A DNA stretch of 64,000 bases from an uncultured Methanosarcinales archaeon (GCA_964563755.1 CAZLYC010000006.1:3099-67098), one strand, 5' to 3'; numbered from the stretch's first letter, positions 20,619-61,590 are shown. Made by a program: numbers and translations. The notes: generated from the letters alone by a model not told the origin.

Positions 20619-20713
20619 GCAATGCCTCCTAGCGAACAGCTCACTACTCTTCTATTTGAATCGCAGTTGGGCTACCGAAGACAGATATGACATCCATGTG
20701 AGCGAGGCATTGC
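20619..20713. repeat. GC-rich palindromic repeat element, type B (TIR GCAATGCCNC...GNGGCATTGC)
   Basis: Near-identical to the reverse complement of 61496..61590. Shares the core CTTCTATTTGAAT(C/T)GCAGTT. Abuts the folD stop. Confidence 0.65.
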
Positions 20714-20731
20714 GACAAAAGTTAAAGTTAC

Positions 20732-20835
20732 GCACCGCCATGGCCGCTCGCTCCTATTGCTAATCAAAGTGTTTATCTGAGTACACCGTTAATCAGAAAG
20801 AAAAATATGCCAGCTCGCTAGGGCTTTGGCGGTGC
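20732..20835. repeat. GC-rich palindromic repeat element, type A (ends GC(A/G)CCGCCAA(T/A)GCC...AGCGAGCGGCCNTGGCGGNGC)
   Basis: Reverse-complement copy of the elements at 38425, 53439 and 61385. Contains the core CTGAGTACACCGTTAATCAG. Confidence 0.65.
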
Positions 20836-20841
20836 TATTTT

Positions 20842-22365
20842 TTATTCCCATTCCATCGTAGCTGGTGGCTTGTTTGAGATATCATACACCACTCTATTGA
20901 CTTCAGGTATCTCGTTTGTTATTCTCGTAGACATCTTCTCAAGCAGTTCGTAAGGTACTTTAGAAAAATTTGCAGTCATTGCGTCTTTTGATTCGACAAT
21001 CCTTATTGCGACAGGGTATTTGTAGCTTCTCGCATCTCCCTGTATTCCGACACTCTTTATCGGCAAGAGCACAGCGAATCCCATCCAGACATCATTGTAA
21101 AGTCCAGCGTTCTTTAGTTCATCTTCTACTATATAACTTGCTTTTCTTGTTATCTCTGCTCTTTCTGGCGTCACTTCACCTAGTATTCTTACTCCAAGAC
21201 CAGGACCGGGAAAGACATGTCGGGTTATTATTTCATTGTCCAATCCTATGTTGCGGGCCAGCTTTCTGACTTCATCTTTGTAGAGTTCGCGTAGTGGTTC
21301 GTAAACTTCTAGTTTCATGTTATCAGGCAGCCCACCGACATTATGATGGGATTTTATCTTCGATGAGTGCTTAGTGAGACCGCTCTCTATCCTGTCAGAG
21401 TATATCGTGCCCTGCACAAGCACTTCTGCGTTTTCTTTTTGCGCAAGTTCATCGAACACATCGATGAATGTCTTGCCTATCGATTTTCTCTTGAGTTCGG
21501 GGTCTTCTACTCCCTTTAGAGCTTCAAAGAATTTGTCTCGTGCGTCAAGCACTCTTAAATCAAGAGCATATTGTGAGAATATCTTCTCTATTGTCTCTGT
21601 CTCCTTGTGTCTCATGAGTCCTGTGTCGACGTATGCGGCGACAAGCTGCTTTCCTATGACCTTGCTTAGTATTATCGCTGCTGTCGATGAGTCAACCCCG
21701 CCAGATAATCCGAGTATCGCTTTTCTTTTTCCTATCTTCTGTGCTGCCTCTTGTTCTATTATTGATATTATGTTTGTTACATCCCATTCCTTCTTTGCAT
21801 GGCAGATATTGAGTGCGAAGTTCTCAAGGATCTTGTTTCCATTCGGCGTATGTGTGACCTCAGGGTGGAATTGAACGCCGTAAAGTTTCTTTTGTTTATT
21901 TTCAAATGCTGCGATTGGTGAATCTTTTGTTGATGCTGTCGTAACATATCCTGAAGGCAGCGATTCGACTATGTCTTTGTGGTTCATCCAGACTTTTTCT
22001 ATGCTGAGAATACTATTAAGCAATTTTCCATCTAGGACTTTCAAGGATGTGACGCCATACTCTCCTGAGTCACCAGGACTGACTTTGCCTCCGCTCATCT
22101 GGGCTATGAGCTGGTGTCCGTAGCATATGCCAAGTATGGGAACAGAGATATCCAGCAGGTCTTTATCGCACTTGGGTGATTCTTTGTCATATACAGATGA
22201 TGCTCCACCTGAGAGGATGATACCTTCAAGTCCATCTATCTTCTCTAACTGTTCTTTGCTCGTCGTTGCAGGAAGCACTTCCGAGTACACTCCTATGTCT
22301 CTTATCCTCCTAGAAATCAGGTGGGCGTACTGGGAGCCGAAGTCCAGCACTATTATCCTTTCCAT
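20842..22365 (-). CDS. guaA: GMP synthase (glutamine-hydrolysing), fused GATase plus ATP-pyrophosphatase, bacterial-type single polypeptide
   Basis: GATase triad region (GICYGHQL), SGGVDSS PP-loop, C-terminal GMP synthase dimerisation domain. 507 aa. Confidence 0.9.
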   Translation of the reverse strand: MERIIVLDFGSQYAHLISRRIRDIGVYSEVLPATTSKEQLEKIDGLEGIILSGGASSVYDKESPKCDKDLLDISVPILGICYGHQLIAQMSGGKVSPGDSGEYGVTSLKVLDGKLLNSILSIEKVWMNHKDIVESLPSGYVTTASTKDSPIAAFENKQKKLYGVQFHPEVTHTPNGNKILENFALNICHAKKEWDVTNIISIIEQEAAQKIGKRKAILGLSGGVDSSTAAIILSKVIGKQLVAAYVDTGLMRHKETETIEKIFSQYALDLRVLDARDKFFEALKGVEDPELKRKSIGKTFIDVFDELAQKENAEVLVQGTIYSDRIESGLTKHSSKIKSHHNVGGLPDNMKLEVYEPLRELYKDEVRKLARNIGLDNEIITRHVFPGPGLGVRILGEVTPERAEITRKASYIVEDELKNAGLYNDVWMGFAVLLPIKSVGIQGDARSYKYPVAIRIVESKDAMTANFSKVPYELLEKMSTRITNEIPEVNRVVYDISNKPPATMEWE

Positions 22366-22633
22366 GAGGTTTACACTTGTTTTTCGGCTTATTTATACTT
22401 TGTGTAGCAATATAAAGGAAACACGGTTTTGCGCCGGTGCTGAGTTAAAAGAAAGGAGAGAAAACGTAATTCTTTCGTATAACATCTCAAAACGAATGAT
22501 TTTTGCGTTTTGATAAAAAAATTACGAGCTAATTTTATAGTATTTGCGTGCGTTATAGTCTACAAGGAAGTGCATCTTCAAAAGAATTCCAGGTGTTGAG
22601 AGATAGAAGAAAGATAGAAGAGCACGATTCAAA

Positions 22634-23137
22634 TTGGGTGAGACCTTGACCAGACCTGCGCTAAAGGGTAATCTGGATATTGACGACACTGTCCGCGGCT
22701 ACATATGCCCGACTTGCGGCGTATCACATGAGACATATTTCTCGCTTGATGACGGCGTGGAAGAATCTCCATCTAAACCTGTCGCAACGCTTGAGGTATG
22801 TTCAGAGCTTGAGGACAAGATAGTTTCTTGCGAAAACGGCTTCATGATGTCAAAGATGAAGCTTGTCGAACACAACATGGAAGTTTCTGATAAGGACCTT
22901 ATCATGTATCTTCCGGGAGACCATCTGTACTGCCCTGCATGCGACACAAAGCATGAAGGTGACTACATAGAGGTCAGTTATTCTAGCGACCCAGGGAAGA
23001 GCATAGTGCAATGCCCTGACGGGAGGATGATGCCTAAGGACGCATTATTGAGCCACAGCCACAGGAAACTGCTTGAGAGGATAGAGAAGAGATCCAATTC
23101 AATCATAAGGATAGGCAACGGTTACAAGAGTATCTAG
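22634..23137 (+). CDS. Hypothetical protein with two CxxC pairs (zinc-ribbon-like)
   Basis: CPTCG...C..C and CPACD...CPDG. Start codon uncertain. Confidence 0.45.
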   Translation: MGETLTRPALKGNLDIDDTVRGYICPTCGVSHETYFSLDDGVEESPSKPVATLEVCSELEDKIVSCENGFMMSKMKLVEHNMEVSDKDLIMYLPGDHLYCPACDTKHEGDYIEVSYSSDPGKSIVQCPDGRMMPKDALLSHSHRKLLERIEKRSNSIIRIGNGYKSI

Positions 23138-23150
23138 GAGGGATGTTACG

Positions 23151-23486
23151 ATGTCTGACGGGAATGAGAGGAAAAACAGGATTGAAGATTATCTGAAGAC
23201 ACTTACGCCGGAGGAAAGAGAGAGGCACAAGGAGCTTATAGAGGAATGCAGGCAAAGAGAGAAGGATATCAGGGAAAGCTATGATAATGCCCGCGAGTCA
23301 ATCAAGGAAGTGAAGAAAAATTATGAGATGATAGGTGAAAACCTCAAGAAGATGTGCGAGTTCTACGGGGAGCTTGAGAAGCTTGTCGAAGTCGCTGATA
23401 AGATGAACAAGGCGACGGACAGCTTGGAAGGAGTATATGCGGCATATTTCCTGATGAACAGGAAAGACGGCAAGAAATATTCTTAA
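23151..23486 (+). CDS. Hypothetical coiled-coil protein (111 aa)
   Basis: Charged heptad-like sequence. 14 nt after the previous ORF. Confidence 0.45.
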   Translation: MSDGNERKNRIEDYLKTLTPEERERHKELIEECRQREKDIRESYDNARESIKEVKKNYEMIGENLKKMCEFYGELEKLVEVADKMNKATDSLEGVYAAYFLMNRKDGKKYS

Positions 23487-23527
23487 GGAATCGCCATAAA
23501 TAGGACCTATTAAAAATTATTTTCAAA

Positions 23528-24760
23528 TCATTTCTGTTTTGGTTCTCCTATGTAGCAAGCATTCTTATCTGGTTTCTTGTATCTTCCTCTTGCCTGCTCC
23601 CTGAACTTGACCATTGCTGAATATACCTGGTTGACATAGTTGACTGTCTCACCTATGAAGGGTATGCCATGAGTCCCATTGTTGCCTGCATTCTGCAGCG
23701 CAGTCGGGCTTGCATTGTACCCTGCTGCTGCAATCCTGAAGTCTCCATTGTATTTTTTCAGCAGGTCTGCATGATGATGCACAGCAGCGTCAATAGTCAT
23801 TATCACAGATAATCTCTCGTCAACTTCTGAGAGATATTGGTCTAGCAGTATCTGTTTCTCGCGCTCTTTCTGTTCTTTTGTCTTAATCTGCATCTTCGTC
23901 GCTCTTGCTACCCTCTCTTCATATGCCTGTCTCTGCTCTATCTCGCGTATCCTCTGCGGAACCTGTTTTGATGCGAGGTCTATGTAATTTGTATATTCCG
24001 CATGTGCTGCGTTGAGGTTTCTTTCGAAAACCTCTGCCTCTGCTATGAGGTAGAAGTATTTTTCTATGTCTGCTGAATTAGATGATATGAAATTTCTTAC
24101 ATCATCTCTTATTTTGTCAGGTGTCGAATCCTGGCCTATCATCCTCTCAAGCTTTGAGAGCAGTGTGCCTCTTATCTCTGACGATGCTTTCCATTTGTCC
24201 CTCGCCTTCCAGAGGTTCTGCCTGCCTATTTTCCAGCTGTAAGGCTCGTTCGTCCTAAGACCATATCTCTGTCCTGTAGATTCTATGAACTGTGCATCGC
24301 CTAAAGCTCCGGCAGGTGAGACTATGACTTTGCCGAATCTTGATTCCTGCCATATTATTGCTAGTGTGAACATCGGGTCGACCGGCCATATCTCAGCATA
24401 TCTCTCGACAGATTCGAGTATGTAAGGGAAGTATTTTCTTGCATCCGGGTTTGACCTTAGGAACTGCTCAAAATCATAGCTGCTCTCTGTGCAGAGTGAT
24501 TCTTTCAGTTTGCTCTGTGCATCGTCTGCCCTGCTCTCGCATTCAATTATGTCTACTGAGTGCCTATTCACTTGATCGTCCAGGCAAGATATATTATGTT
24601 TCAATGAAGCGTTCTCCTGCGTAAGCATCTCTATCTCTTGTGCGTGCCGCTTCAAGAGTTCCTGCCTGTCTTTGAACAAATCAGAATTCAAAATACTATG
24701 AGTTCCGATGGCTGCTGCGCTTATTCCTGCTACGATGATTGCTTTTTTGATTATATTCAT
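23528..24760 (-). CDS. Secreted or membrane-anchored lytic transglycosylase (SLT domain) protein
   Basis: N-terminal hydrophobic segment. SLT catalytic region IIWQESRF...SPAGALGDAQFIESTG (E-S...AGAxG.MQ pattern), and a C-terminal ...AAAGYNASP... segment whose assignment to the SLT fold is uncertain. Confidence 0.72.
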   Translation of the reverse strand: MNIIKKAIIVAGISAAAIGTHSILNSDLFKDRQELLKRHAQEIEMLTQENASLKHNISCLDDQVNRHSVDIIECESRADDAQSKLKESLCTESSYDFEQFLRSNPDARKYFPYILESVERYAEIWPVDPMFTLAIIWQESRFGKVIVSPAGALGDAQFIESTGQRYGLRTNEPYSWKIGRQNLWKARDKWKASSEIRGTLLSKLERMIGQDSTPDKIRDDVRNFISSNSADIEKYFYLIAEAEVFERNLNAAHAEYTNYIDLASKQVPQRIREIEQRQAYEERVARATKMQIKTKEQKEREKQILLDQYLSEVDERLSVIMTIDAAVHHHADLLKKYNGDFRIAAAGYNASPTALQNAGNNGTHGIPFIGETVNYVNQVYSAMVKFREQARGRYKKPDKNACYIGEPKQK

Positions 24761-24913
24761 TTCAACACCGATTTTATATCAACACTATGTTAGAACAAGC
24801 TGAAGAGGCTTGCCTTCCCTCTGTTTTTTCTGCGTTAAAAAAATGCTCTGCGCAGAATTATAAATGTTTCGGTCAGGCAAAGATTTAAATATATTCAATA
24901 AGACCTTAAGCCC

Positions 24914-25795
24914 ATGAAAAAAGAAGTTGATGCTGCTGTCATGAAGATGATGCTGTCTGCAGAGGAGAGTGAGATAACAGAGCATAACATATACAGGAAG
25001 CTTTCTGAGTCTATAAAAGACACGCACAACAGCAAGGTACTGAAAAGCATATCTGATGATGAGTTCAGGCATTACAATTTCTGGAAATCGATGACAGGTG
25101 TCGATGTCCCGCAGAGCAAGTTAAGATTCTGGAAGTATTATCTTATATCCAAGGTTTTTGGAATTACATTCGGAACAAAGCTGATGGAACGTGGAGAAGG
25201 CGCTGCACAGCAGAAGTATGACAAGCTTGCCGAGCATGTGCCTCATGCGAAGCAGATAGAGGCTGATGAGAAGAAGCATGAGAAGCTGCTGCTGGATATG
25301 CTTGACGAGGAGAAATTAAAGTATGTCGGTTCTATTGTCCTCGGCCTTAACGATGCTCTTGTTGAACTTACTGGCGCTTTGGCTGGTTTCACTCTTGCTT
25401 TCAAGAATTCGAACATAATAGCTATTGCTGGATTGATAACAGGCATCGCAGCTTCATTCTCGATGGGCGCTTCAGAGTATCTCTCGACAAAATCAGAGAA
25501 AGGTGATGGTAAGAACCCTTTCAAGGCATCCATATATACAACTCTCGCTTACATTCTGACCGTGTTTTTCCTTGTGTTTCCATTTATGATTATGAGTAAC
25601 CCTCTTATTGCGCTTGCGATAACTTTGGTCAATGTCATGATTGTAATCACAACGTTCACTTTCTACATATCTGTCGCTCAGGACATAAGTTTCAGGTCGA
25701 GATTCACTGAGATGACCCTGATAAGTCTGGGTGTTGCAGCATTCTCTTTCGGAGTGGGATTCATTATTAGAACAGTCTGGGGAATAGAGATATAG
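24914..25795 (+). CDS. Erythrin-VIT1 iron transporter (MbfA-like: N-terminal ferritin-like domain plus VIT1/CCC1 membrane domain)
   Basis: N-terminal rubrerythrin-like helices with E..H pairs. C-terminal GLNDALVELTGALAGFT motif and TM helices of the VIT1 family. Confidence 0.72.
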   Translation: MKKEVDAAVMKMMLSAEESEITEHNIYRKLSESIKDTHNSKVLKSISDDEFRHYNFWKSMTGVDVPQSKLRFWKYYLISKVFGITFGTKLMERGEGAAQQKYDKLAEHVPHAKQIEADEKKHEKLLLDMLDEEKLKYVGSIVLGLNDALVELTGALAGFTLAFKNSNIIAIAGLITGIAASFSMGASEYLSTKSEKGDGKNPFKASIYTTLAYILTVFFLVFPFMIMSNPLIALAITLVNVMIVITTFTFYISVAQDISFRSRFTEMTLISLGVAAFSFGVGFIIRTVWGIEI

Positions 25796-25813
25796 TTCAT
25801 TCTAAATAAATAA

Positions 25814-25916
25814 GCAGTTCTGCAGCCGCCTAGCGAGCGTCATACAATTATTTTATTTGAATTGCAGTTCTGCAACCGAAAACAGTTATATGATTAATGC
25901 GAGCGCGGCTGCAACA
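25814..25916. repeat. GC-rich palindromic repeat element, type B variant
   Basis: GCAGTTCTGCAGCCGCCTAGCGAGCG...ATTTTATTTGAATTGCAGTTCTGCAACCGAA...GCGAGCGCGGCTGCAAC. Shares the core with 20619, 48212 and 61496. Confidence 0.6.
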
Positions 25917-25940
25917 GTATAGAAGCACATTAAAAAAAGT

Positions 25941-27050
25941 TTATTCTTTAAGCACCAGTTCCACAATCGCTTCTGTGTGCGGAGTCTGGGGAAAAAGGTC
26001 AAACATTGCTGCGCTCTTTAGCTGATATTCCTTGAATTTTGGTATGTCTTTTCCAAGCTGCTGGATATTGCATGATATATATAGTATTACTTTAGGCTTG
26101 AGCATCTTTAACTCAAGTATGGTCTTCGGGTGCATGCCTGATCTCGGCGGGTCTGTTATTACGAAGAGCGGTTCTGGAAGTTCAAGTTTTTTCAGCTGCA
26201 TCGCGTCAAGAAGCACGGCCTTTGTGTTTGTCGCATTGTTCATTTTTATATTCTCATTTGCTGCATCTATGCATTGCTTCACGCTCTCAACCGTCGTTAC
26301 TCCTTTAAAAAGCGGCGAATTGTTTATCCCAAAAGTGCCTATCCCGCCATAAAGGTCAAGTAGGTGCGAATTCTTCGTGTCATACTTCTTGAGCAGTTCA
26401 TTGCAGTAACTGTGCATCGTTTCAGCCATCTCGTGGTTGTTCTGTGAGAATCCCTGCACAGAATAGATAAAATTGTTACCAAGATAGCTCTCTTTCAGCA
26501 TGTCTTTTCCCTTGACTACAAAGAAATCATCGGATACGCTGATGTCTGTTATTGACGGCGCATAAGTGACGATTATATTATTAGCAGTGGTTTCTTTCGC
26601 GAACTTCTTTATCTTCTCTATCGCTTCACCGACTCTTGTTGAGTCGCTGTTGAGAACAAACGAGATTGATGAATCATTCTGGGGTGTCCGTATGACAGCA
26701 TATCTAAACGTGCCTGATTTCCTGCTCACATCGAAATAATCAGGCTCCCTGAAGAATTCCCTAACCTCTTTCATAAGGATATTTAGCTTCTCATTCGATA
26801 TTGCGCACGAATCAACAGTCACTGTCTCTTTCCAGTCGCCTTTCTTGCGGAGACCGACCCCGTTCTTTGAGAAGACAAAGTCCATCCTGTTCCTGTAGCC
26901 ATACTCATTAGCAGAGAATACTTCGATGTCATCCTGTCCTATCAGTGCTGCAAGAAGTTTTTTCTTGTGATCGAGCTGCGCAGGATAGTCTATGTGCTGG
27001 GTTGAGCAGCCGCCGCATCTTCCAAAGTAAGGGCATCTTGGTGTCGCCAT
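25941..27050 (-). CDS. RNA (uracil-5-)-methyltransferase, TrmA/RumA family (TRAM plus class I SAM MTase)
   Basis: N-terminal Cys cluster CPYFGRCGGC, SAM-binding DLYGGIGTF, C-terminal catalytic DPPRSG. Start set at MATPRC. Confidence 0.8.
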   Translation of the reverse strand: MATPRCPYFGRCGGCSTQHIDYPAQLDHKKKLLAALIGQDDIEVFSANEYGYRNRMDFVFSKNGVGLRKKGDWKETVTVDSCAISNEKLNILMKEVREFFREPDYFDVSRKSGTFRYAVIRTPQNDSSISFVLNSDSTRVGEAIEKIKKFAKETTANNIIVTYAPSITDISVSDDFFVVKGKDMLKESYLGNNFIYSVQGFSQNNHEMAETMHSYCNELLKKYDTKNSHLLDLYGGIGTFGINNSPLFKGVTTVESVKQCIDAANENIKMNNATNTKAVLLDAMQLKKLELPEPLFVITDPPRSGMHPKTILELKMLKPKVILYISCNIQQLGKDIPKFKEYQLKSAAMFDLFPQTPHTEAIVELVLKE

Positions 27051-28123: not shown

Positions 28124-28127
28124 AAAA

Positions 28128-29532: not shown

Positions 29533-29533
29533 T

Positions 29534-38374: not shown

Positions 38375-38424
38375 ATATTTTTAATTTAATATTTTTTATA
38401 TTTCTTATTTTCTATAACACTTAG

Positions 38425-39754: not shown

Positions 39755-42724
39755 TTGTTTGAAGGGGATACTTTGGAAGTTACACCGCCACCTTTACCTA
39801 AGAACCGGACTCAATCAGCAGTAGATGATTCTTCATCAGATGATGATGTGACCAAGAAAAGGAAGTTGGATGAGCTTATGCAGCAGATTGAGATAAGCAA
39901 GGCAAAGTCTGCTTATCACGATTCTCCACAGACAAACGAACCTGAGATAGATGCTTCTGCTGTAAGCATGGTTGAGCAGGAAAATCCTGTAGCGTACCCT
40001 TCAGAACAGGGTAACGCTCAATTTGTTCCGCAGGAAGAGCCTGTCGAACAGAAACAAGAAGCGCAAGAAGAAGGCCAGTATATTTCAAAGGATGATATAG
40101 ATTCTATTTTCAGCAATCAGATGCCCAATCCAGGGATTGCCGCGGCGATTCAAGAAGAGGTCGACCCGCAGAAAAGGGACACTGTCAACATGGGACATGT
40201 CCAGCAAGATACTACACCAGTAGTTTATCATCAGCCGCCAGCTCCAAGGGATACTGTCAACATGAATCAGGTTCAACAGAAATTGGATAGGTCTGCTGAT
40301 TATGCAGGGCAGACTCCAAGAGATACAGTGAAGATGGCTTACTCATTTCCGCAGGAAGAATCTTCTGTCAGCGGAGTGTCTCATGCTAACATTCGATTAG
40401 CGGATTCTGACTCTCAGGGTTTTAATGCGAACACGCAAGTGGTAGCGCGCACCAGAACACGCAAAGTCGGAAATCTGACTTTGACTGTCGGCGTTCAGAA
40501 AGACCAGGGGCAGAGGAAATATGATGAGGACAACCATCTTGTGTCTCTCGAGAATCTCATTTTCGCTGTAGCGGATGGTGTCGGTGGTCATCTGAGGGGA
40601 GACGAAGCGAGCAAAGCTGCAGTAGATATCATGAAGAATTTCTATCATGAGAAGGTCATAATCAATGAGAAGAAATCCAAGAAGGAACGCAGAGGGACGA
40701 TCAGCATACTTGATGATGCTACTGAAACCTGCCACGAAGTAATCCTTGGGAAGAATGGGCTGAAGAAAGGTGAGAAAGTCCAAAGCAGCAGCTATGATAT
40801 GATGGGGACAACACTGACAACTCTTGCAGTTTCTGGCAATAAGGCATACATAGCTCACGTCGGTGATTCGAGAATCTACAGGTTCAGGAGGAATCCGAAG
40901 ACCAAGAAACTCGAGGGCGAGCAGCTTACTGAGGATCATGATGCTCTTACACAGAGCCTGAAACTCGCGAAGGATGAGACCGAGAAGCAGGACTCTTTCG
41001 CTTACTGGAAGAACAAGAACGTGCTCACCCAGGCAGTCGGCATGCCGCATGACGCTGGCAGGCTCGAGGTCTGCAAGAGGACTGAGAAGATAAAGGACAA
41101 GGACATATACCTGCTTTGCAGCGACGGGCTTACAAAACCATTCACAAATCATGATGATATGAAGACAGACACAAAGAAGATTGGTGAGATAATAGATAAG
41201 CACATAGATTCTCCACAAAAGTGCTGCGATGCGCTTGTCAGTGCGGCACTTGAAGGCGGAAGCGATGATAACATAACTGCGATGATAGTCTCTTTTGAGA
41301 ATAAAGGTTTTGATTACACAAAGATACTAAAACCTGTGGCTGCTGCAGCGACACTCACAGCATTCGTGGCGACAGTCGCGACAGGCGGATATTTAACATA
41401 TGATTGGCTGTCAAACAGGAAGAGCGCAGAGGTTGCAAAACCAACGACTGCTGCTGTGCAGGTTGTCGAGAAGAAAGAAGATATAGAGCTTGCCAGGCTT
41501 CCCGCTTATGTGCCTGCACCAGTTCCATTGCCGGAGAAACTTACGCCAGAACCTGTTGTTCCTGCTCCTCAACCAGTTGAAGTGAAGCCAGAACCCGTGG
41601 TTCCGACAGCAGTTGCAGAGCAGGTAGTCACTGCTCCAGCACCAGTTCAGCAGCAAGAGAGTTTAGATGCACTTGAGCAGGCATGCAGAGATACTGCTCA
41701 TGAAAGATTTGTCAAGATAATCAAGGATAGCAAGCCGAGGTCTAAAGTAAGGAAGTACAATCTGCTGCCTGACAGCTCAGGAACTCCTTCAGACCAGTGG
41801 GCAATAAACGCTGGAACGTACGAAGCCAACAAGAACGCGAAGCATCCTTGGAAAGGCGGCAAGGCTACAAAAGCGCAGCGTGAGCGTGCGAAAAAGTACA
41901 TACTCGATCACACAGGAAATCCTGTTATGTTCTTGACCCTGAACAGGGCAAGTGAGTTCACAATACGGGACATAAACCCAAGACGTGTCGATGCAGGTAT
42001 AGTCCCTGAATGCAGGCCTTATCAGGCTAAGATTACTTCTGAGAAAGGAAGTAACGACCACATTGATGATAGAGTATTGCCTGGTGAACTAAGACAAGGC
42101 CCGAACTCTGATGATGACAGAACAAGATATGCTGCTGTAACAGATGATGATTCAATTCTGCCTCAGCAGGAATATTCAGCAGTGCAGCGCACAGTTATAG
42201 AGCATCTCTACAAGGAATTCGCTTTCGGGAAGAAGATTAGCGAATCGCAGATGGCAGAAAAAGCAAGTGAATATGGTATACATAAACTGACTGCCTCTTC
42301 TGCAAAGGAAGTCTATCTTAATTTGGCGCTTGCGCGCGATGATGTTGATTATGAACCAGAGATACTGCTTACAGAAGTTGTAGATGACAATGAGTTTATG
42401 CCTTCTGATGAGTTCGGTCCAGAGCTGCTTTTGGAGGACATCCTCTATGAGCCGGTCAAGGCGATGAGCAGGGATGCAGAAAACTGCTTGAAGAATGGCC
42501 AGTGCGAGCTCGCATTGCCGGAGTACACCGGAGACAGCCAAGAGCAGTGGGCCCTTGCGAAGTCAACCATGGATAAGAGAGTTGCTGATTACAAGTCTCA
42601 GCAGATGAAGCAGCAGTGGGAAGCATCATGCAAAAACCGAAATCTTGCAGATCAGTGGAAAAATGCGTGCAAGGATAGGGAACAGAGATTTTCTCAGCCG
42701 ACTGAATACAGGCTTGCGGCTTAA
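39755..42724 (+). CDS. Membrane-anchored PP2C-family Ser/Thr phosphatase with a low-complexity N-terminus, a Pro-rich linker and a C-terminal domain of about 380 aa with unknown function
   Basis: PPM motifs FAVADGVGGH, GTTLTTLAVSGNKAYIAHVGDSRIY, LCSDGL, GGSDDNITAMIV. One TM helix after the phosphatase domain. The frame opens on TTG at 39755; the first in-frame ATG is at about 39878. The start is uncertain. Confidence 0.78.
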   Translation: MFEGDTLEVTPPPLPKNRTQSAVDDSSSDDDVTKKRKLDELMQQIEISKAKSAYHDSPQTNEPEIDASAVSMVEQENPVAYPSEQGNAQFVPQEEPVEQKQEAQEEGQYISKDDIDSIFSNQMPNPGIAAAIQEEVDPQKRDTVNMGHVQQDTTPVVYHQPPAPRDTVNMNQVQQKLDRSADYAGQTPRDTVKMAYSFPQEESSVSGVSHANIRLADSDSQGFNANTQVVARTRTRKVGNLTLTVGVQKDQGQRKYDEDNHLVSLENLIFAVADGVGGHLRGDEASKAAVDIMKNFYHEKVIINEKKSKKERRGTISILDDATETCHEVILGKNGLKKGEKVQSSSYDMMGTTLTTLAVSGNKAYIAHVGDSRIYRFRRNPKTKKLEGEQLTEDHDALTQSLKLAKDETEKQDSFAYWKNKNVLTQAVGMPHDAGRLEVCKRTEKIKDKDIYLLCSDGLTKPFTNHDDMKTDTKKIGEIIDKHIDSPQKCCDALVSAALEGGSDDNITAMIVSFENKGFDYTKILKPVAAAATLTAFVATVATGGYLTYDWLSNRKSAEVAKPTTAAVQVVEKKEDIELARLPAYVPAPVPLPEKLTPEPVVPAPQPVEVKPEPVVPTAVAEQVVTAPAPVQQQESLDALEQACRDTAHERFVKIIKDSKPRSKVRKYNLLPDSSGTPSDQWAINAGTYEANKNAKHPWKGGKATKAQRERAKKYILDHTGNPVMFLTLNRASEFTIRDINPRRVDAGIVPECRPYQAKITSEKGSNDHIDDRVLPGELRQGPNSDDDRTRYAAVTDDDSILPQQEYSAVQRTVIEHLYKEFAFGKKISESQMAEKASEYGIHKLTASSAKEVYLNLALARDDVDYEPEILLTEVVDDNEFMPSDEFGPELLLEDILYEPVKAMSRDAENCLKNGQCELALPEYTGDSQEQWALAKSTMDKRVADYKSQQMKQQWEASCKNRNLADQWKNACKDREQRFSQPTEYRLAA

Positions 42725-48202: not shown

Positions 48203-48211
48203 AAAAAGAAA

Positions 48212-48300
48212 AGCCGCCAAGCGAGCGTCAGATAACCTCTCTGTTTGTATTGCAGTTCAGCAACCGAATACAAGAACATAATCAGCAGCGAGCGCGGCTT
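48212..48300. repeat. GC-rich palindromic repeat element, type B variant
   Basis: AAGCCGCCAAGCGAGCGTCA...TATTGCAGTTCAGCAACCGAATACAAG...CAGCGAGCGCGGCTT. Confidence 0.6.
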
Positions 48301-48308
48301 TTCTCAAT

Positions 48309-48417: not shown

Positions 48418-48473
48418 TATTAGGTGAATTGCCAAAAGAAATAATGATATAAAAAAATATTTTAATAAAAAAA

Positions 48474-52886: not shown

Positions 52887-52914
52887 ACAGAATTTTTAAA
52901 GAAAAAATAAAAAT

Positions 52915-52988
52915 GGGGCTACGAGGATTCGAACCCCGGTCGGACGCACCCCAAGCGCCAGTGATAGCCAAGCTACACTATAGCCCCG
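52915..52988 (-). tRNA. tRNA-Pro (GGG anticodon read; UGG also possible), intron-less
   Basis: Minus-strand read GGGGCTA TA GTGT..CAC T GGCGC TTGGGGT GCGTC CGAC CGGGG TTCGAAT CCTCG TAGCCCC A. A canonical 74-nt cloverleaf. Confidence 0.85.
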
Positions 52989-55259: not shown

Positions 55260-55295
55260 ATATAAAATAATTTAAAATATTTTTTTATTCTATTT

Positions 55296-55874
55296 TTATC
55301 TGTTTCCGAAGTAGAAGAACTTCTCTATGGATACGTCTTCGGATTTGTAGCTGCCGCTCCTTGCGTGCGCTGTACTGGTCGTTGGCTGCGGCCTTACTGA
55401 ATGAGAAGGTATCTCGCTTCCTGGCTTGAACTGTGTCTGGCCTTCCTTGGCGTCCTTGTTCTTCAGAGGAGGAGAGACAACAGGGTTCTCCTTCAGGTTC
55501 TTGACCTGCTCTTTAAGGTCTGCAAGGTCAGTGAGCATGCTCATGATCTTGAGCGATAGGTCTCTCATCTGTTCGCCGTGGACATTGACTATACTAGTCA
55601 TCTTGCTAAGAGTCGTCTGCTGCTGTCCGACGAGCTTTTCAAACTCTCTCATAAGTTCGTCTTGCGGCACATTGCTGCTTACAGTGAAACTTTCCTGCAC
55701 AGGCGGGAGGGATTCTGCCTGCATCGTAACAGCAGGGGATACTAAGTCTGCCGCGCCGGACTCTACCTGCTGTGCAGCTTTTCTCATCGCATCATCCATC
55801 GTCGTTGATTGACCGTGCTTCATGAGCTCTCGGGCCAGGTTGCTTATCTTCTGGAATTTAGAAATATCGTCCAT
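55296..55874 (-). CDS. Hypothetical coiled-coil protein (192 aa)
   Basis: ORF only. Confidence 0.45.
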   Translation of the reverse strand: MDDISKFQKISNLARELMKHGQSTTMDDAMRKAAQQVESGAADLVSPAVTMQAESLPPVQESFTVSSNVPQDELMREFEKLVGQQQTTLSKMTSIVNVHGEQMRDLSLKIMSMLTDLADLKEQVKNLKENPVVSPPLKNKDAKEGQTQFKPGSEIPSHSVRPQPTTSTAHARSGSYKSEDVSIEKFFYFGNR

Positions 55875-55906
55875 TTCCTACACCTCATGTCTGCCTCTCT
55901 TGATGT

Positions 55907-56989
55907 CTAAAAGCCTAATCTCTGGAGCATTTCTAGGTCCCTTAATATATTAATCTTTTCTTTTTCAAAATGCGTGAATACCAAGTGCACTTTGTTGATA
56001 TCTATCCTCTCGGCGCCTGCTTCAAGCTTGAGTATTTCATGCAGCTGTTTCAGGCTGAGCTTCGCCTTTTTAAGCAGCGCATGGTCTTTCTTGTCGACAA
56101 GCTCCCACTTCTGTATGTTCCTGCGTATCTTCTCAAGGTAATCACGAAATATCTGCATGTCCTCTATGTGTATCTGAAGCAGCCTTTTTGCTTTTACATC
56201 ATGCTTCTTGGTCCTCTCGCTGCGAAGCAGGCTTACTATTTGTGATATATCTTCTATCTCTTTGCGTATCAAATCATCTTCCTGTCTAAGCATATCTGGC
56301 GAGAACCGGTGGTGTTGCTTCCTGAATATCTCTTTGAATGTTTTTTCAGAACTTCCGAGAGTATCGGCGATTTCAGGAATGTGCTGCTTGAGTTTTGCTA
56401 TACTTACATGCCATCCTTTGCCAGGTGTATGCGCAAGCCTGTGCTCTTTCATCTCTTCTATCACGTATCTTACTGCGTGGTCTCTTGTATCATGTGCGTT
56501 TCTCATTCGTAAGAAACGTTTCATAATGTCAAGGTATTGGTTCTGGCATTTTATAGAATCATACATGCGAGGATGATTGCTGTTGGCGAAAGCATGATAT
56601 ACATATAGTTCTGCTGCGATGAACAATGCTCTCTGTTTTCGTACATGGTTGTCGCCGAGGCCTCTTGTCACGACAATCACATTCCCGATATTGCCATGCC
56701 TCGCCTTGTCTATGCCGCTTGGCTCAAATTCCCACATTTTTGTGGCGCCGAGAGATGCGTGCTTCAGTATTATCTGGGATGTGCTGACATGCGCAGGCTT
56801 GAGCTGCTGCTTGCGCTTCATTGTCTTGTATATCTTTGACAGATAAGAATTTATCTCAAGCGCTATAAGCCGCTTGTAACCCTCTTTCTCTTCCTTGCTC
56901 ATCATTCCGTATATTTGTCTTATCATGTTTTGTCTTATCCTGTTCAGTCTTGTAAAATCATATTGTCGTGCTGAACTTTTCGCTTCCAA
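55907..56989 (-). CDS. Hypothetical protein (360 aa, basic and helical). The start may be the downstream Met near 56926
   Basis: Long ORF. The N-terminus overlaps the 3' end of the flavin-reductase gene by 32 nt. Confidence 0.5.
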   Translation of the reverse strand: MEAKSSARQYDFTRLNRIRQNMIRQIYGMMSKEEKEGYKRLIALEINSYLSKIYKTMKRKQQLKPAHVSTSQIILKHASLGATKMWEFEPSGIDKARHGNIGNVIVVTRGLGDNHVRKQRALFIAAELYVYHAFANSNHPRMYDSIKCQNQYLDIMKRFLRMRNAHDTRDHAVRYVIEEMKEHRLAHTPGKGWHVSIAKLKQHIPEIADTLGSSEKTFKEIFRKQHHRFSPDMLRQEDDLIRKEIEDISQIVSLLRSERTKKHDVKAKRLLQIHIEDMQIFRDYLEKIRRNIQKWELVDKKDHALLKKAKLSLKQLHEILKLEAGAERIDINKVHLVFTHFEKEKINILRDLEMLQRLGF

Positions 56990-57449
56990 GATATATCAGC
57001 CGTTTCTTGTCATTGTTATTCTGTTCTTTTATTACCTTGCCGACAAAGAATATGTGGTCTCCGGCATCGAAAGCGTCTATGACTTCGCATTCAAGGAATG
57101 CTGATGCTTCTCCTATCCTGCAGCAGTCTATTGTCTCGCATTCTTCTTTTGTGAGTCCTGACTTCATGAATTTGTCGACGTGCATGCCTGAGTTCTTTCC
57201 GCAGAATATGACTTTTTCCTTGAGTTCATGCGGGACGAAATTGACGGCGAATACCTTGCTTTCCTGTATCAGTGCGCATGAGAATCTGGACTTGCCTATG
57301 GAAATCCCATATAGCTTTGGGTCGAAACTGAGAGGACTGTGCCATGCAACTGTCATGATGTTGTCTTTGGTCATCTCTTTCCCGAACAGGCTGGTCTTTC
57401 CTCTTGTGCTTACAATTACCGCCTGTGCAGGGTATGGCGAGTCGAACAT
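56958..57449 (-). CDS. Flavin reductase-like domain protein (FMN-binding split barrel)
   Basis: AQAVIVSTRG...NIMTVAWHSPLSFDPKLYGISIGK...FAVNF pattern of the Flavin_Reduct family. Confidence 0.68.
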   Translation of the reverse strand: MFDSPYPAQAVIVSTRGKTSLFGKEMTKDNIMTVAWHSPLSFDPKLYGISIGKSRFSCALIQESKVFAVNFVPHELKEKVIFCGKNSGMHVDKFMKSGLTKEECETIDCCRIGEASAFLECEVIDAFDAGDHIFFVGKVIKEQNNNDKKRLIYLGSEKFSTTI

Positions 57450-57470
57450 GGCAAAACCACCTCAAGAGGT

Positions 57471-58259
57471 CTAGATTTCTTTACTTAAATCAAGGTATCC
57501 TTTCTTGCCTGCCTTGTGTATGTGATGTGTGCCTTCGAAATCACCCATCTTTATCACGCCTATTACCAGGAAAAGGACGAATACAAAATACTGGGCGTAA
57601 AATAGTTCGAAGTTCAGAGGCAGGTTTATGATATCTATCAGTATCATCGGTGTCGTAGAGAAGACTGACGCCCTGAATACATTGCCGAAGGTTATCTCGA
57701 ATTTGGCTATTCTGGCTATTATGAATGCGACGGCTGCCGCAAGCATTATGATGAGCAGTATCTTTATAGCATAGGCAAGATAGAATATGAACAGCAATGA
57801 CGGCAGCAACAAGAGTAGCAGCAGCACGACAATCCCTTCATTGTTGAGGAGGTTCTTGTATTCCTTAAGAGCATATTTGTCTATGTCTCCCATGACGCCT
57901 TTGACATACATATAATCATCAGTTATAAGGAATCTTCCTTCTTCGAGTTTACCTGTAGATTTTCTTGTGTCTACAGTTACGAAAGGGTCATTTTGAGGTA
58001 TTGACATCTCTTTCTTCATTGTTGTATTGAAACTCACCTCAAGCTTCTCGAAATTCGACATCTGTGTGCTTACAAAGCTGCCTATGACTGGCAGCATGAT
58101 TATTATTGATATGAAGAATGCCAGGAAAACGAATGAGAAAAGGTAGCCGAATACGCTTCTCATGCTTTTTTCTTTCAGTTCTGCGTATTTCCAAGGGAGC
58201 AAGGATAATCCAAGTGTCTTGAAGAAAGGTATTGGCACATATTCCCGGATAGGTTTCAT
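57471..58259 (-). CDS. Polytopic membrane protein, hypothetical
   Basis: About 5 TM helices including an LLLLLL tract. Confidence 0.5.
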   Translation of the reverse strand: MKPIREYVPIPFFKTLGLSLLPWKYAELKEKSMRSVFGYLFSFVFLAFFISIIIMLPVIGSFVSTQMSNFEKLEVSFNTTMKKEMSIPQNDPFVTVDTRKSTGKLEEGRFLITDDYMYVKGVMGDIDKYALKEYKNLLNNEGIVVLLLLLLLPSLLFIFYLAYAIKILLIIMLAAAVAFIIARIAKFEITFGNVFRASVFSTTPMILIDIINLPLNFELFYAQYFVFVLFLVIGVIKMGDFEGTHHIHKAGKKGYLDLSKEI

Positions 58260-58425
58260 TTTCGCACCTCGTTTTTCTTGGTTGGACCAAAGCAGGCCAT
58301 GTTTAAAAACTTTGTCATAGCCTCCAATAACTGCTTTTTAGAGGTTTAAATCAGTTTTCATGCATCAGGACGAATAGAAAAAGGTTTATATAATATAGAA
58401 ACAATATTTTTGCGGGGGTCGAGAG

Positions 58426-59112
58426 ATGGCGAGGGTTTACGCTTCTTTAAGTGCTGTAGCCGACAAAAGCAAGATAGGCAGCAGTCTGGAGATTGCGCTT
58501 AAGTCAGGCATCGATGGTGTTCATTTTGACATACTTGATGGCAGCATGATTGGCAGCAAGACTCCATACACTCCTGATTATTTTGCGAAGGTCGCTAATT
58601 TCTGCAGGACAAGATCTGACAAGTCTGATTTTGCATTAGAAGCGCACATAATATCAAAGGAACCTGGACTCCTGATTGACTCTTACATCAAGGCCGGCGC
58701 GAACAGGATATCTGTCCCGTATGAAGCTTACGAGGCAAATACAAAAGAATTGCTTGACCTGTTAAGGTCATTGAAAGGTCAAGCGAAGGCAGGAGTGTCT
58801 TTCTATGTTAATGAGATGTCAAAACCTCTTGATTTCAATATCATGATGACCGCAAACTACATACTCCTCGCAGGCTCTAAGACAGTCACAGATACTGCTC
58901 CTATGATGCCCGCAGCGTTAGGGCACGTGCAGAACATATCTTCGATGAAAAAGAGATATAATCCATCGCTTGAACTTGTTGTTGGAGGCGGAGTTACAGA
59001 AGGGAACGTAAAAGGGTTAAAAGATGCCGGTTCAGATATTCTTGTATTAGGAAATTTCCTTTGGAGTTCAGAGAAGCAAGTTGAGTTCATCAAGAAGGTG
59101 AAGGGTTACTGA
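58426..59112 (+). CDS. Ribulose-phosphate 3-epimerase-family TIM-barrel protein (divergent)
   Basis: GVHFDILDGSMIG (compare HxDxMDG.F.PN of RPE) and C-terminal VVGGGV...GSDILVLG. Confidence 0.55.
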   Translation: MARVYASLSAVADKSKIGSSLEIALKSGIDGVHFDILDGSMIGSKTPYTPDYFAKVANFCRTRSDKSDFALEAHIISKEPGLLIDSYIKAGANRISVPYEAYEANTKELLDLLRSLKGQAKAGVSFYVNEMSKPLDFNIMMTANYILLAGSKTVTDTAPMMPAALGHVQNISSMKKRYNPSLELVVGGGVTEGNVKGLKDAGSDILVLGNFLWSSEKQVEFIKKVKGY

Positions 59113-59710
59113 CCTGCTTACTGGTTTGCGATGCGGATTTGCTCTCAGGAACTGCCTTTTTCTCTGGATGCGCCTTGCATATGAATATGAGGTCTTTATC
59201 CTCCTGGACTATTTTCTTAACGCGGAAGTTGATTATTATGAGCTTTGTTATCTCATCTATCTGCTTCGATTTCCGGAGCAATGTTATGACAAACCTGTCC
59301 TTACCGACCCTCCTCATCTCCATTATTGCTTTTCTTATGTCTGTGAAATTATGTATTGATGTCACGCTTATGACTACATCAAAAGATTTGTCAGGGAAAG
59401 GTATAGCTTCAGCGGCTGCGACAGTGAATTCCTTTCCGGGATGCTTCTTTTTTGCTATGTCTATCAGTTCCTTGCTTGGGTCTATGCCGAAGCATTTCGC
59501 ACTCCATACAGACGTCGATATACCTGTTCCGCAACCTACATCAAGAAGGCGCTCGTTCTTTTTAGGCACATCCGCCCCAAGTGCAGCCACTATCTCTATC
59601 ATCTTGTTAAGCTGCTCTTCTGTATGGAGCTCGTCATAGCCCTGCGCTATATTATCATAATACTTGTCCATGCAGATATTTCTGTGCCCGGGCTTTATTA
59701 ATTTAATCAC
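59090..59710 (-). CDS. Class I SAM-dependent methyltransferase
   Basis: LLDVGCGTGISTSVW (motif I), DVVISVTSIHN (motif II/III). Confidence 0.7.
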   Translation of the reverse strand: MIKLIKPGHRNICMDKYYDNIAQGYDELHTEEQLNKMIEIVAALGADVPKKNERLLDVGCGTGISTSVWSAKCFGIDPSKELIDIAKKKHPGKEFTVAAAEAIPFPDKSFDVVISVTSIHNFTDIRKAIMEMRRVGKDRFVITLLRKSKQIDEITKLIIINFRVKKIVQEDKDLIFICKAHPEKKAVPESKSASQTSKQVSNPSPS

Positions 59711-59808
59711 TTAAGTGACCCTGAAATGCATTTTAAGTATGCCGAAACTTGATATAAATAAACAGGGCAATGACAAAGTTTAAATAACAAAAATCAATCA
59801 GCAGGGGC

Positions 59809-60066
59809 ATGTTTGAATTCAAGAAGTACAGGTTGCTGCTGCTCGGCATATTGGCTATATGCGCTGGAGCATTCCTTCTTGCGGAAGCGAGTTCGAAGCA
59901 AGCAAGGTGCGAGAGCCTGGGCGGACAGCTTGTCCAGCTGCTCGACATGGATACTAAGGAAGGTTGTGCGCAGGTTAAGGTCATGTTCATCTTCGCTTAT
60001 TCCGCCATAGCGATAGGCATAGCTCTTATCGTTTCTAATTTTGTCAAGAAACAAGGGAAGCGCTGA
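59809..60066 (+). CDS. Small membrane protein (85 aa)
   Basis: Two TM helices. The stop overlaps the next start (ATGA). Confidence 0.4.
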   Translation: MFEFKKYRLLLLGILAICAGAFLLAEASSKQARCESLGGQLVQLLDMDTKEGCAQVKVMFIFAYSAIAIGIALIVSNFVKKQGKR

Positions 60067-60938
60067 TGACACCCAGGCTTGAGCTTGAAGACGATATCGA
60101 TGACAGCGCGAAGAGGAATAAGATAATATCCCTCATTTCAAAGTACACAAGACACAAGTTCGTTAAGCTTGTCCAGCGCGGCAATGCCGCAATATTCTGT
60201 GCGCTGAAGATTGCATTGACAGAAAGCAATAGGAAGTTCATTCTCGTGCCTGACCAGGGAGGCTGGATTTCTTTTCTCACTTATCCGCAAATCCTTGGTT
60301 TTGATATAAGAAAAGTCAAGACCGACAAGGGCATCATTGACCTTGCACATCTTGAGAAAGAGTCAAAAGACTGCGCTGCATTTCTTGTGACGAGCTTCGC
60401 AGGTTATTTTGCAGAGCAGCCTATGGAAGAGATATCAAAAATCTGCAGGAAGAACGGATGCCTGCTGATTGAGGACGCTTCTGGCGCGATAGGCGACAAG
60501 ACCCTTTGTGACGGAAAGCTCTCGGATATCATAGTCGGAAGCTTCGGCCAGTGGAAGCCAGTGAACAACTGCTACGGCGGGTTCATTAGCGTTAAAGATA
60601 AGGGATTTTTTGAAAGGTCAAAAGATATTTTTTCGACAACAAATTTTTTCCCGGATTACGATTTACTGCTTAAGAAACTGGAAGCCGTGCCTGAGAGGTT
60701 GAAGAGCATGATCGCTCTCGCAGATGAGACAAAGAAAGAGCTATCAAAAGAGTTTCCTGGTTTGGAGTTGATGCATCCCGGTCGCAGGGGCCTTAATATA
60801 GCTATAAAAATAAGAAGCGATAAGGATAAAAAGGACATTGACTCTTACTGCAAGAAGAAATGTTTTAATTACGTTGAATGTCCTGAATACGCAAGGACCA
60901 ACGAAGATGCTATCGTGATTGAACTGAAACGCATTTAG
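60066..60938 (+). CDS. PLP-dependent aminotransferase-like protein (DegT/DnrJ/EryC1-like fold), unusually short (290 aa)
   Basis: NAAIFCALKIAL (compare taAlhlaL), LIEDASGAIG (compare IEDaAqahG), SFGQWKPVN (putative PLP-Lys region). Confidence 0.45.
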   Translation: MTPRLELEDDIDDSAKRNKIISLISKYTRHKFVKLVQRGNAAIFCALKIALTESNRKFILVPDQGGWISFLTYPQILGFDIRKVKTDKGIIDLAHLEKESKDCAAFLVTSFAGYFAEQPMEEISKICRKNGCLLIEDASGAIGDKTLCDGKLSDIIVGSFGQWKPVNNCYGGFISVKDKGFFERSKDIFSTTNFFPDYDLLLKKLEAVPERLKSMIALADETKKELSKEFPGLELMHPGRRGLNIAIKIRSDKDKKDIDSYCKKKCFNYVECPEYARTNEDAIVIELKRI

Positions 60939-60971
60939 AGGTGATGTAAGATTCTAAGAGAACCAGAAAGC

Positions 60972-61355
60972 ATGGAAGAAGTCATCTATTTCACGCAGCG
61001 TGATGTAGGCAACGGCTTTGCAAAAGCTTGGGTATACAAGGGACCGTGTCCAAAGTGCGGCAAAGGCAAGATGGGTAAGCCTGTCGAGAAGGGCAAGGTT
61101 AAGATACGAGCTAAGGAGTATGTCTGCCCTGAATGCAACTATACTGTCGAGAAGAAGGAGTATGAGGATACACTTGAGTGTGAGATAAAGTATACCTGTC
61201 CTGGATGCAAGTTCGTAGGTGAGACAAAGGTTCCTTTCAAAAGGAAGACGTTTGAAGGTATGAAAGCAATCGTATTCCTCTGCGAGAAATGCAAGATAAA
61301 GATTCCGATAACAAAGAAGATGAAGTCAAAGGGAGATCCGGACGACGACGAATAA
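60972..61355 (+). CDS. Multi-zinc-ribbon protein (four CxxC pairs)
   Basis: CPKCG...CPECN...CPGCK...CEKCK. Confidence 0.5.
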   Translation: MEEVIYFTQRDVGNGFAKAWVYKGPCPKCGKGKMGKPVEKGKVKIRAKEYVCPECNYTVEKKEYEDTLECEIKYTCPGCKFVGETKVPFKRKTFEGMKAIVFLCEKCKIKIPITKKMKSKGDPDDDE

Positions 61356-61384
61356 TTTTTTATATTTATTATTTCTATAACAAG

Positions 61385-61488
61385 CGCCGCTAATGCCATT
61401 GCGAGCTGGCGAAACAATCTTCTGATTAACGGTGTACTCAGATTAACTATGTTTAATCATATCTAAGCGAGCGGCATTTGCGGCGCGA
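61385..61488. repeat. GC-rich palindromic repeat element, type A
   Basis: GCGCCGCTAATGCCATTGCGAGCTGGC...GGTGTACTCAGATTAA...AAGCGAGCGGCATTTGCGGCGCG. Confidence 0.65.
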
Positions 61489-61495
61489 AAACGTT

Positions 61496-61590
61496 GCAAT
61501 GCCACGCTCGCAATGACAATAACATCGTCTTCGGCTGCCGAACTGCAATTCAAATAGAAGTATAATCTGAAGCTCGCTAGGTGGCATTGC
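61496..61590. repeat. GC-rich palindromic repeat element, type B
   Basis: TIR GCAATGCCAC...GTGGCATTGC. The reverse complement is about 85% identical to 20619..20713. Confidence 0.65.

Follow-up and report, generated by a model that had tools for sequence, protein, structure and literature searches.

A 64,000-nt stretch of DNA listed under an uncultured Methanosarcinales archaeon (GCA_964563755.1, CAZLYC010000006.1:3099-67098; this whole stretch is called the window below) carries, within 44 kb, ten elements of about 95-110 nt, all intergenic, which form a real dispersed and lineage-specific repeat family, or superfamily, of hairpins with two subfamilies, A and B, each represented by five copies. 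The family is new, being absent from Rfam and from the literature that could be searched. Its fold is strand-specific and of fixed size, and its closing helices are under selection to pair. We tentatively favor a reading in which the elements are transcribed hairpins that behave like the repetitive extragenic palindromes (REPs) and bacterial interspersed mosaic elements (BIMEs) of bacteria, acting at mRNA 3' ends, or as small RNAs, by way of a protein-binding basal module.

A and B have one architecture and one interior length in common, a point missed by an earlier, sequence-only reading of the window that had described two related types. From 5' to 3', each element begins with the 5' arm of a closing stem, P1, of 9-17 bp; a bulge of 3 nt and the hexamer GCGAGC follow, then an interior of 60-61 nt, a second GCGAGC, and the 3' arm of P1. 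The bulge has the consensus CUA and is always on the 5' arm. That reading had proposed terminal inverted repeats and internal hairpins; the outer stems do pair, but the inner motif, GCGAGC on both arms, is a direct repeat and not an inverted one. Placed antiparallel, the two hexamers pair as G-C, C-G, G·A, A·G, G-C, C-G, and helices with a tandem G·A mismatch in the GCGAGC/GCGAGC context are known to be stable. The complementary strand would instead have tandem C·U/U·C mismatches and a bulge on the other arm, and the fold is therefore strand-specific; in 14/14 clear copies, the bulge and the G·A motifs lie on one and the same strand. The interior measures 60 nt in 10 of these 14 copies and 61 nt in the other 4, and A and B interiors share little obvious sequence. 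That its length is held to 60-61 nt in every copy despite sequence divergence (59-80% identity) argues for a constraint on each copy rather than recent copying.

The end and core motifs first quoted for the two types are correct. Type A starts with GCA or GCG, ends in GC, and has the core GGTGTACTYAGA, with landmarks at fixed spacing (CGAGCT-N24/25-GTGTACTYAGA-N23-AGCGAGC). Type B has the ends GCAATGCC and GGCATTGC and the core GCAGTT, again at fixed spacing (GCGAGC-N25-GCAGTT-N29/30-GCGAGCG).

Evidence that the stems are maintained by pairing comes from both types. (Copies are named here by type and first base, and loci from other metagenomes and relatives by L numbers.) For eight A sequences, the paired share of cells is 92%, and both sides have changed in six of the pairs; none of 500 shuffles reaches the observed value, and in a control in which the partners were slid, paired cells fall to 26-48%. 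Eight B sequences, two of them from relatives, give 91.5% paired cells, seven pairs changed on both sides, no shuffle of 500 reaching that value, and 19-39% paired cells when slid. The P1 stems of B copies differ and yet pair perfectly (CTCCG/GAGGC, CGCCG/GCGGC, CACCG/GTGGC and AAAAGA/TCTTTT). The hexamer helix covaries as well: B20619 has GCGAAC/GTGAGC, a compensated change from G-C to A-U; the relative L014 has GCATGC/GCATGC, with A-U/U-A in place of G·A/A·G; and another relative has GCGCGT/ACGAGC. Within the interior, type A forms a 5-bp helix, UCUGA/UCAGA, around an invariant GGUGUAC, with one fully compensated variant, UCUAA/UUAGA in A48309, and type B forms a 4-bp hairpin around AGUUNN. 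RNAalifold settled no further interior structure, and the secondary structure of this part is only weakly conserved. Finally, a covariance model built from A copies only found all the B copies at full length and in sense, with scores of 24-34 bits and antisense scores of at most 10.8 bits. Because a model made from one type finds every copy of the other in sense, A and B belong to one superfamily.

The existence and number of the copies were confirmed. Profile hidden Markov models (HMMs) made from the copies and run with nhmmer recovered exactly five copies of each type, A with E 9e-33 to 4e-30 and B with E 1e-30 to 1e-23, within a few bases of where the ten had first been placed; neither these models nor the covariance model run without filters found any further copy in the 64 kb. 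The arrangement GCGAGC-N58-63-GCGAGC occurs eight times in the window, against 0.04 expected from shuffles. A generic scan for stem, bulge and hexamer gave too much noise to reveal variant families. The elements do stand out against the AT-rich DNA around them, but the description of them as far more GC-rich is overstated, their GC content being 49.5%, compared with 45.2% in coding sequence and 36.1% in the remaining intergenic DNA. They make up about 11% of the non-coding DNA of the window (1005 of 9221 intergenic bases). Pairwise identity is 59-77% among the A copies and 55-73% among the B copies; no pair is near-identical, and an identity matrix places the window copies no closer to one another than to copies from other metagenomes. 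Both orientations occur, as had been noted, with six copies on the plus strand and four on the minus strand.

The elements occupy six loci, of which five are convergent gene junctions and the sixth lies between divergently transcribed genes. Eight of the ten copies are in sense, 0-56 nt past a stop codon, consistent with the original remark that copies sit at gene ends. In the first locus, B20619 (20619-20713, plus strand; E 3.5e-29) begins at the base right after the folD stop codon; it has the P1 arms GCAATGCCTC/GAGGCATTGC, the bulge CTA and an interior of 60 nt. Tail to tail with it across an 18-nt spacer lies A20732 (20732-20835, minus; E 1.2e-32; 111 bits with the covariance model; interior 61 nt), 6 nt past the guaA stop. 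The folD/guaA locus is also contained in run SRR14492172. The solo copy B25814 (25814-25916, plus; E 1.1e-26) follows the stop of a 293-aa gene by 18 nt in a convergent junction; its P1 proper, TGCAGCCGC/GCGGCTGCA, bounds 25821-25913, and its interior is 60 nt. The other solo copy, A38425 (38425-38529, plus; E 8.9e-33; hexamers TCGAGC/GCGAGC; interior 60 nt), is downstream of an 842-aa S-layer-like gene. At the fourth locus, B48212 (48212-48300, plus; E 2.5e-25; P1 spanning 48207-48304, AGAAAAGCCGC/GCGGCTTTTCT; interior 61 nt) lies 9 nt past the stop of a DHH-family gene and, across 8 nt, tail to tail with A48309 (48309-48417, minus; E 3.5e-30), whose P1 has 16-17 bp. The divergent junction, between a 106-aa membrane-protein gene (minus) and a secreted-protein gene (plus), holds A53439 (53439-53544, plus; E 2.1e-31) and B53558 (53558-53652, minus; E 1.4e-23), tail to tail with a 13-nt spacer. 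At the last locus, A61385 (61385-61488, plus; E 1.4e-31; P1 GCGCCGCTAATGCC/GGCATTTGCGGCGC; interior 60 nt) is tail to tail, with a 7-nt spacer, with B61496 (61496-61590, minus; E 1e-30), which lies 6 nt past the stop of a 49-aa zinc-ribbon open reading frame (ORF; 61597-61746, minus).

Four window loci thus carry an A and a B copy side by side, as first reported. Together with one more pair, in the metagenome locus L006, all five known pairs consist of one A and one B copy set tail to tail; the spacer is 7-18 nt long in the window pairs and about 13-16 nt long in that of L006. B copies begin 0, 6, 9 and 18 nt from a stop codon, A20732 6 nt from one, and the A copies in L002 and L004 about 6-12 nt past the stop of the upstream ORF. 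Directly 5' of most B copies and of A20732 is an A-rich, AATAAA-like stretch, which reads AAATAAATAA, AAATAAATATAA, GAATAAAGA or GAAATAAAAAAAGAAA (for example at 25802-25813, 61591-61603 and 53653-61); it could be a target preference, a part of the element, or simply stop codons and AT-rich spacer. The zinc-ribbon ORF (CPKC...CITC), which had not been listed before, lies between a 263-aa gene and B61496, and L016, L017 and L038 have a 50-aa gene at the matching position.

Beyond the window, the family was found in few places. A relaxed A pattern run over 241 million metagenome records yielded three true homologues, L002, L004 and L006, the last of which also has a B copy. The strict type A pattern had no match in a collection of genomes from 185,579 species; in viral contigs the A pattern had none and the B pattern had 17, all chance matches in GC-rich contigs. 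Loci anchored on the closest GuaA proteins in the species collection, which are 67-69% identical and come from Aenigmatarchaeota metagenome-assembled genomes, are without elements. Syntenic contigs whose Rad50 is 55-57% identical have no more than a single, diverged member apiece. A clear B-type element (nhmmer 7e-7, covariance model 1.8e-4) is present in L035, in the divergent junction that matches the 53439/53558 pair, on the strand opposite to B53558, and B53558 is the window copy closest in the identity matrix to the B-type elements of L035 and L016. The junction has a weak minus-strand member in L039, and in L016, L017 and L038 it is short (about 130 nt) and empty. The junction matching the 48212/48309 pair holds the GCATGC variant in L014 and L015 and no element in L016 or L037. 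L016 does have a degenerate B-like element, antisense to both of its neighbors. Across these genus-level relatives, then, a junction may hold a pair, a solo copy, a copy in the other orientation or nothing, and at that distance the intergenic DNA is unalignable.

Several of these junctions contain other hairpins. In L036, the junction matching the 48212/48309 pair (7667-7981, about 310 nt) has three unrelated ones, for example CAGCTTTGGT...ACCAAAGCTG and AAATTTCGA...TCGAAATTT; these do not contain GCGAGC, which suggests that hairpins of other families may stand at these sites in other lineages. The L014 element (7690-7850) is nested in a further outer helix, GCTGCG/CGCAGC, and the L039 element (5960-6150, minus) in the outer helix GCGATGCGACC/GGTCGCATCGC, in a region that folds with -78 kcal/mol (z = -2.6); both have extra small hairpins.

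The sequence-only reading had offered two kinds of explanation, mobile elements like MITEs (miniature inverted-repeat transposable elements) and structured RNAs such as REP-like terminator or processing elements. Judged from sequence, the structured-RNA alternative appears to fit better: the bulge and tandem G·A pick out one strand, the interior is of fixed length, and TATA-like boxes stand upstream of several copies. In the reading that we favor, the folded strand would be RNA. Copies adjoining a stop codon would form the transcribed 3' end of the upstream gene's mRNA, and copies with an AT-rich or TATA-like box, or in divergent junctions, would have promoters of their own. The basal module of P1, bulge and tandem G·A would act as a protein-binding, exonuclease-blocking cap that defines and protects RNA 3' ends and insulates closely packed convergent genes, as REPs and BIMEs do in bacteria. 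The family would have spread through a duplicative process, and adjacent copies would be tolerated only as A plus B, since an inverted pair of a single type would amount to a long perfect palindrome, which would be unstable.

Several observations weigh against this reading. The folded strand may instead be single-stranded DNA, and the bulge and the tandem G·A are both stable in DNA too. P1 mismatches are uninformative about the strand: G·U and A·C occur four times each, so that strand specificity comes down to the bulge and the tandem G·A. The sample comprises 14-17 sequences in all. About 12 of the 17 convergent junctions in the window have no element, which implies that the elements are not general terminators, and T-runs 3' of the elements are inconsistent, with no consistent terminator. 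The 53439/53558 pair, the solo B element of L035 and the B-like element of L016 all lie outside any gene's sense 3' UTR, and the tail-to-tail arrangement is kept even in the divergent junction, which suggests that it is a property of the pair and not of gene context. The variable occupancy of the same junction among relatives is the behavior of mobile or dispensable DNA.

The copies outside 3' UTRs are better accounted for if the elements are multicopy, independent small RNAs, acting in trans or as scaffolds of ribonucleoproteins (RNPs), each made from an RNA gene of about 100 nt or processed as a unit from a 3' UTR. We consider this possible, if doubtful, and would say the same of its particulars, namely that the basal stem, bulge and G·A bind protein and that the interior core with its variable flanks carries the function, for instance target recognition. 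An AT box of the pattern T5-7ATAT(T/C)N1-3TTATTTCT occurs three times in the window, all three times upstream of an A copy and never of a B copy, at 7-19 nt: TTTTTTATATTTCTTATTTTCT (38392-38413, plus), 13 nt upstream of A38425 and aligned with the 61385 locus; TTTTTTTATATCATTATTTCT (48437-48457, minus), 19 nt upstream of A48309; and TTTTTTATATTTATTATTTCT (61356-61376, plus), which starts right after the stop of a 127-aa gene and ends 7 nt upstream of A61385. By its sequence this box could be a T-run terminator of the upstream gene, a TATA box of the element, or both. The divergent-junction copies also have TATA-like boxes upstream, CTTTAAAAAG at about 31 nt from A53439 and, in L035, TTTATATT centered about 26 nt from P1. 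The antisense B-like element of L016 stands downstream of a TATA-like block that is conserved with L038. Small-RNA genes would explain these promoter-like boxes and the divergent and antisense copies better than the mRNA 3'-end reading does, and they fit the fixed interior length, the invariant cores, and the fact that the window, L035 and, weakly, L039 keep a B-type element, in either orientation, at one and the same divergent junction. At least five copies, however, adjoin a stop codon and leave no room for a promoter, which this explanation does not cover unless those copies are processed from mRNAs. The distance from AT box to P1 varies, no consistent terminator follows the elements, the interior fold is weakly conserved, and no interior has a match elsewhere in the window that exceeds chance (matches reach 12 nt; the search covered the window only, not rRNA), an observation on which the idea of guide RNAs was also set aside. 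As a separate observation, a 30-nt block, CAGGATTCAGGTnTTTAAAAGCTTTATTGT, is near-identical in L016 (17985-18020) and L038, where the intergenic region has otherwise diverged; this block, beside the B-like element, is likely a promoter and possibly a bidirectional one.

A further reading, which we likewise hold to be on the improbable side, treats the elements as selfish, non-autonomous mobile DNA: MITEs, doublets of REPs (REPINs) or foldback elements, or single-stranded DNA hairpins moved by a trans-acting enzyme of the HUH or another type. Tandem G·A pairs and bulges are also found in single-stranded DNA hairpins that HUH-type or similar enzymes recognize. In one form of this reading, A and B would be the two structured ends of a transposon, a pair an internally deleted element, and a solo copy a half-element; in either form, the conserved motifs would be the enzyme's recognition signals. 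The pairs speak for it, since all five join unlike types tail to tail, so that the module common to both faces outward in the manner of imperfect terminal inverted repeats. So do the very different copy numbers among relatives, the occupied and empty versions of the same junction, and the restriction to intergenic sites, mostly convergent junctions, which are the least harmful places for an insertion. Nevertheless, no transposase, integrase or reverse transcriptase was found among the approximately 50 window proteins scanned, and no autonomous element or cognate insertion sequence in any locus fetched. The best flanking direct repeat averages 3.3 nt, compared with 3.4 nt at 2000 random positions, and none reaches 6 nt, so target-site duplications are absent. 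Copies that have diverged by 20-41% all keep pairing, motifs and exact length, which decaying relics in a compact genome would not. The pair spacers differ in length and sequence, implying that the pairs have not recently moved as units, and there is no orientation bias of the kind that lagging-strand mobilization might give.

Comparison with known mobile families bears on both the mobile reading and the one that we favor. Like MITEs, including archaeal ones, the elements are small, non-coding, dispersed and bounded by inverted repeats. Unlike MITEs, they lack target-site duplications, their inner hexamers are direct and not inverted, their copies are old and diverged yet structurally intact, and their terminal arms are complementary within a copy, with compensated changes between copies instead of a conserved sequence. 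Membership in that class was therefore rejected on target-site duplication and conserved terminal repeats, and the specific features of the MITE-like explanation first proposed were not found, there being also no window transposase and no close copies. The resemblance to REPs, BIMEs and REPINs is closer: high density, GC-rich and imperfectly palindromic sequence, and intergenic placement, often after stops and between convergent genes, as single copies or as inverted, tail-to-tail dimers of unlike types, an arrangement found in all five pairs. Structure is also kept better than sequence, copy number varies among relatives, and a role as an mRNA 3'-end hairpin is plausible. Tail-to-tail and head-to-head dimers are typical of REPs, which measure 20-40 bp, have one end tagged with GTAG or CGTC, and are associated with RAYT transposases (PMC3733652). 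The present elements, in contrast, are 89-109 nt long, with a structured 60-61-nt interior holding invariant cores, a module of bulge and tandem G·A, and an archaeal host. Neither tag is present at either end of A or B copies, and no RAYT (IS200/IS605-type tyrosine transposase) is among the window proteins. The earlier suggestion of a structured-RNA or REP-like family thus survives as far as the hairpins and compensatory closing stems are concerned and fails, as to REP membership, on size and tag. Because bacterial REPs are both mobile and functional, the reading that we favor, the small-RNA reading and the selfish-DNA reading overlap in our analysis.

The basal module also invites comparison with the kink turn (K-turn), the motif bound by L7Ae-family proteins in box C/D and H/ACA small RNAs, rRNA and L7Ae mRNA leaders. 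The elements share with it a stem rich in GC, three bulged nucleotides on one strand, and a helix with tandem G·A/A·G pairs, and an archaeal host should encode L7Ae-family proteins. The K-turn has its tandem G:A pairs immediately after the bulge (PMC6298567). In the elements, two Watson-Crick G-C pairs stand between the CUA bulge and G·A/A·G, so that the module is at most K-turn-like. We judge it unlikely, though worth stating, that the elements are a new archaeal class of structured small RNA in which a shared, non-canonical, K-turn-like platform for binding protein carries a functional 60-nt interior in two flavors; the class would be conserved with few copies throughout a Woesearchaeota clade and would have been amplified, in one lineage, to perhaps 100 copies or more.

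Known classes of RNA and related elements were compared in the same way. Box C/D and H/ACA small RNAs were rejected: C/D boxes are absent, and the G·A helix lies right on P1 and leaves no pseudouridylation pocket. An ACA follows the closing stem in four of six B copies (five from the window and that of L006) and in no A copy. At the gathering threshold, Rfam reports only two tRNAs in the whole window, and a permissive scan of one A plus B locus gave only chance-level snoRNA matches (E 0.5-5). A weak match to the C/D-box family sR30 (E 0.48) falls inside the 49-aa zinc-ribbon ORF and is probably spurious. Fragments of tRNA or rRNA, an origin that would have undone the family as first described, are not what the copies are: Rfam and ARAGORN report two genuine tRNAs only, both elsewhere in the window. 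On reading the sequences, tRNA-like or permuted tRNA was set aside, since the invariants of T-loop and D-loop are missing and CUYAGAU is enclosed by no conserved anticodon stem, as were hammerhead and other ribozymes, whose core motifs are absent. Integron attC sites do not apply, since GTTRRRY/RYYYAAC core sites are lacking and the elements are flanked by housekeeping genes, which occur in both orientations. Nor does the archaeal bulge-helix-bulge, which has two 3-nt bulges on opposite strands with a 4-bp helix between them, where the elements have one bulge, on the 5' arm, and none on the 3' arm.

It is very improbable that the elements are double-stranded DNA sites for a protein of chromatin, replication or recombination, with the hexamers as direct-repeat half-sites 66 bp apart: their fixed spacing would suit this, but the compensated changes in P1 and in the hexamer helix need intramolecular pairing, and in relatives the hexamers change (GCATGC, GCGCGT/ACGAGC) while pairing stays.

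Judging by its gene sequences, the window comes from a DPANN archaeon that is Woesearchaeota-like. The relatives of its Rad50, at most 57% identical, are labeled Woesearchaeota or Nanoarchaeota by their sources. The ORF at 1656-3197 (minus) covers only Rpb2 domains 1-3, indicating a split RpoB. An apparent split in PolB is an artifact, as that gene runs past the end of the window. Other genes encode a RuBisCO large subunit, presumably of form III (15238-16545, plus), and a protein with an SLT lytic-transglycosylase domain, unusual in archaea generally (23528-24760, minus); the S-layer-like protein matches the "PACE-CTERM" family. At 10496-10624 (minus) is a tRNA gene with an intron of about 55 nt, apparently tRNA-Tyr (GTA), which scores 54 bits with the Rfam tRNA model and is missed by ARAGORN in its bacterial setting. 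Downstream of rad50, the tRNA-Pro of the window (52914-52987, minus) is a plain 74-nt gene; the corresponding region of L016 (12560-12745) and L035 is about 130-190 nt long with tRNA-like ends and may be a multi-intron tRNA gene. Two 33-nt direct repeats, 72 nt apart and 79% identical, lie inside a 989-aa gene with a PP2C domain (40174-40278, plus) and probably reflect a repeated protein segment.

DPANN archaea are uncultivated and have very small, tightly packed genomes, and to our knowledge almost nothing is known of their non-coding RNA. With pairing, motifs and exact length kept in every copy, the elements are unlikely to be neutral in such a setting. They are unusual in that the interior is fixed at 60 nt, a direct repeat forms the tandem-G·A helix, and the host is a DPANN archaeon; mechanism and function are what we infer, from a small sample. 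The signature GCGAGC-N60-GCGAGC inside a GC-rich stem is a simple handle for finding further copies and for choosing test constructs. If the elements are mobile DNA, they would represent a REP-like system in archaea with a mobilizing enzyme yet to be named. If they act as RNA, they would indicate either a means of shaping transcript ends that has yet to be described or a new system of small RNA and protein, in DPANN archaea. And should they prove to be a small-RNA class of their own, they would constitute a new RNP family, or an RNA multiplying in the manner of a mobile element, in some of the smallest genomes known.

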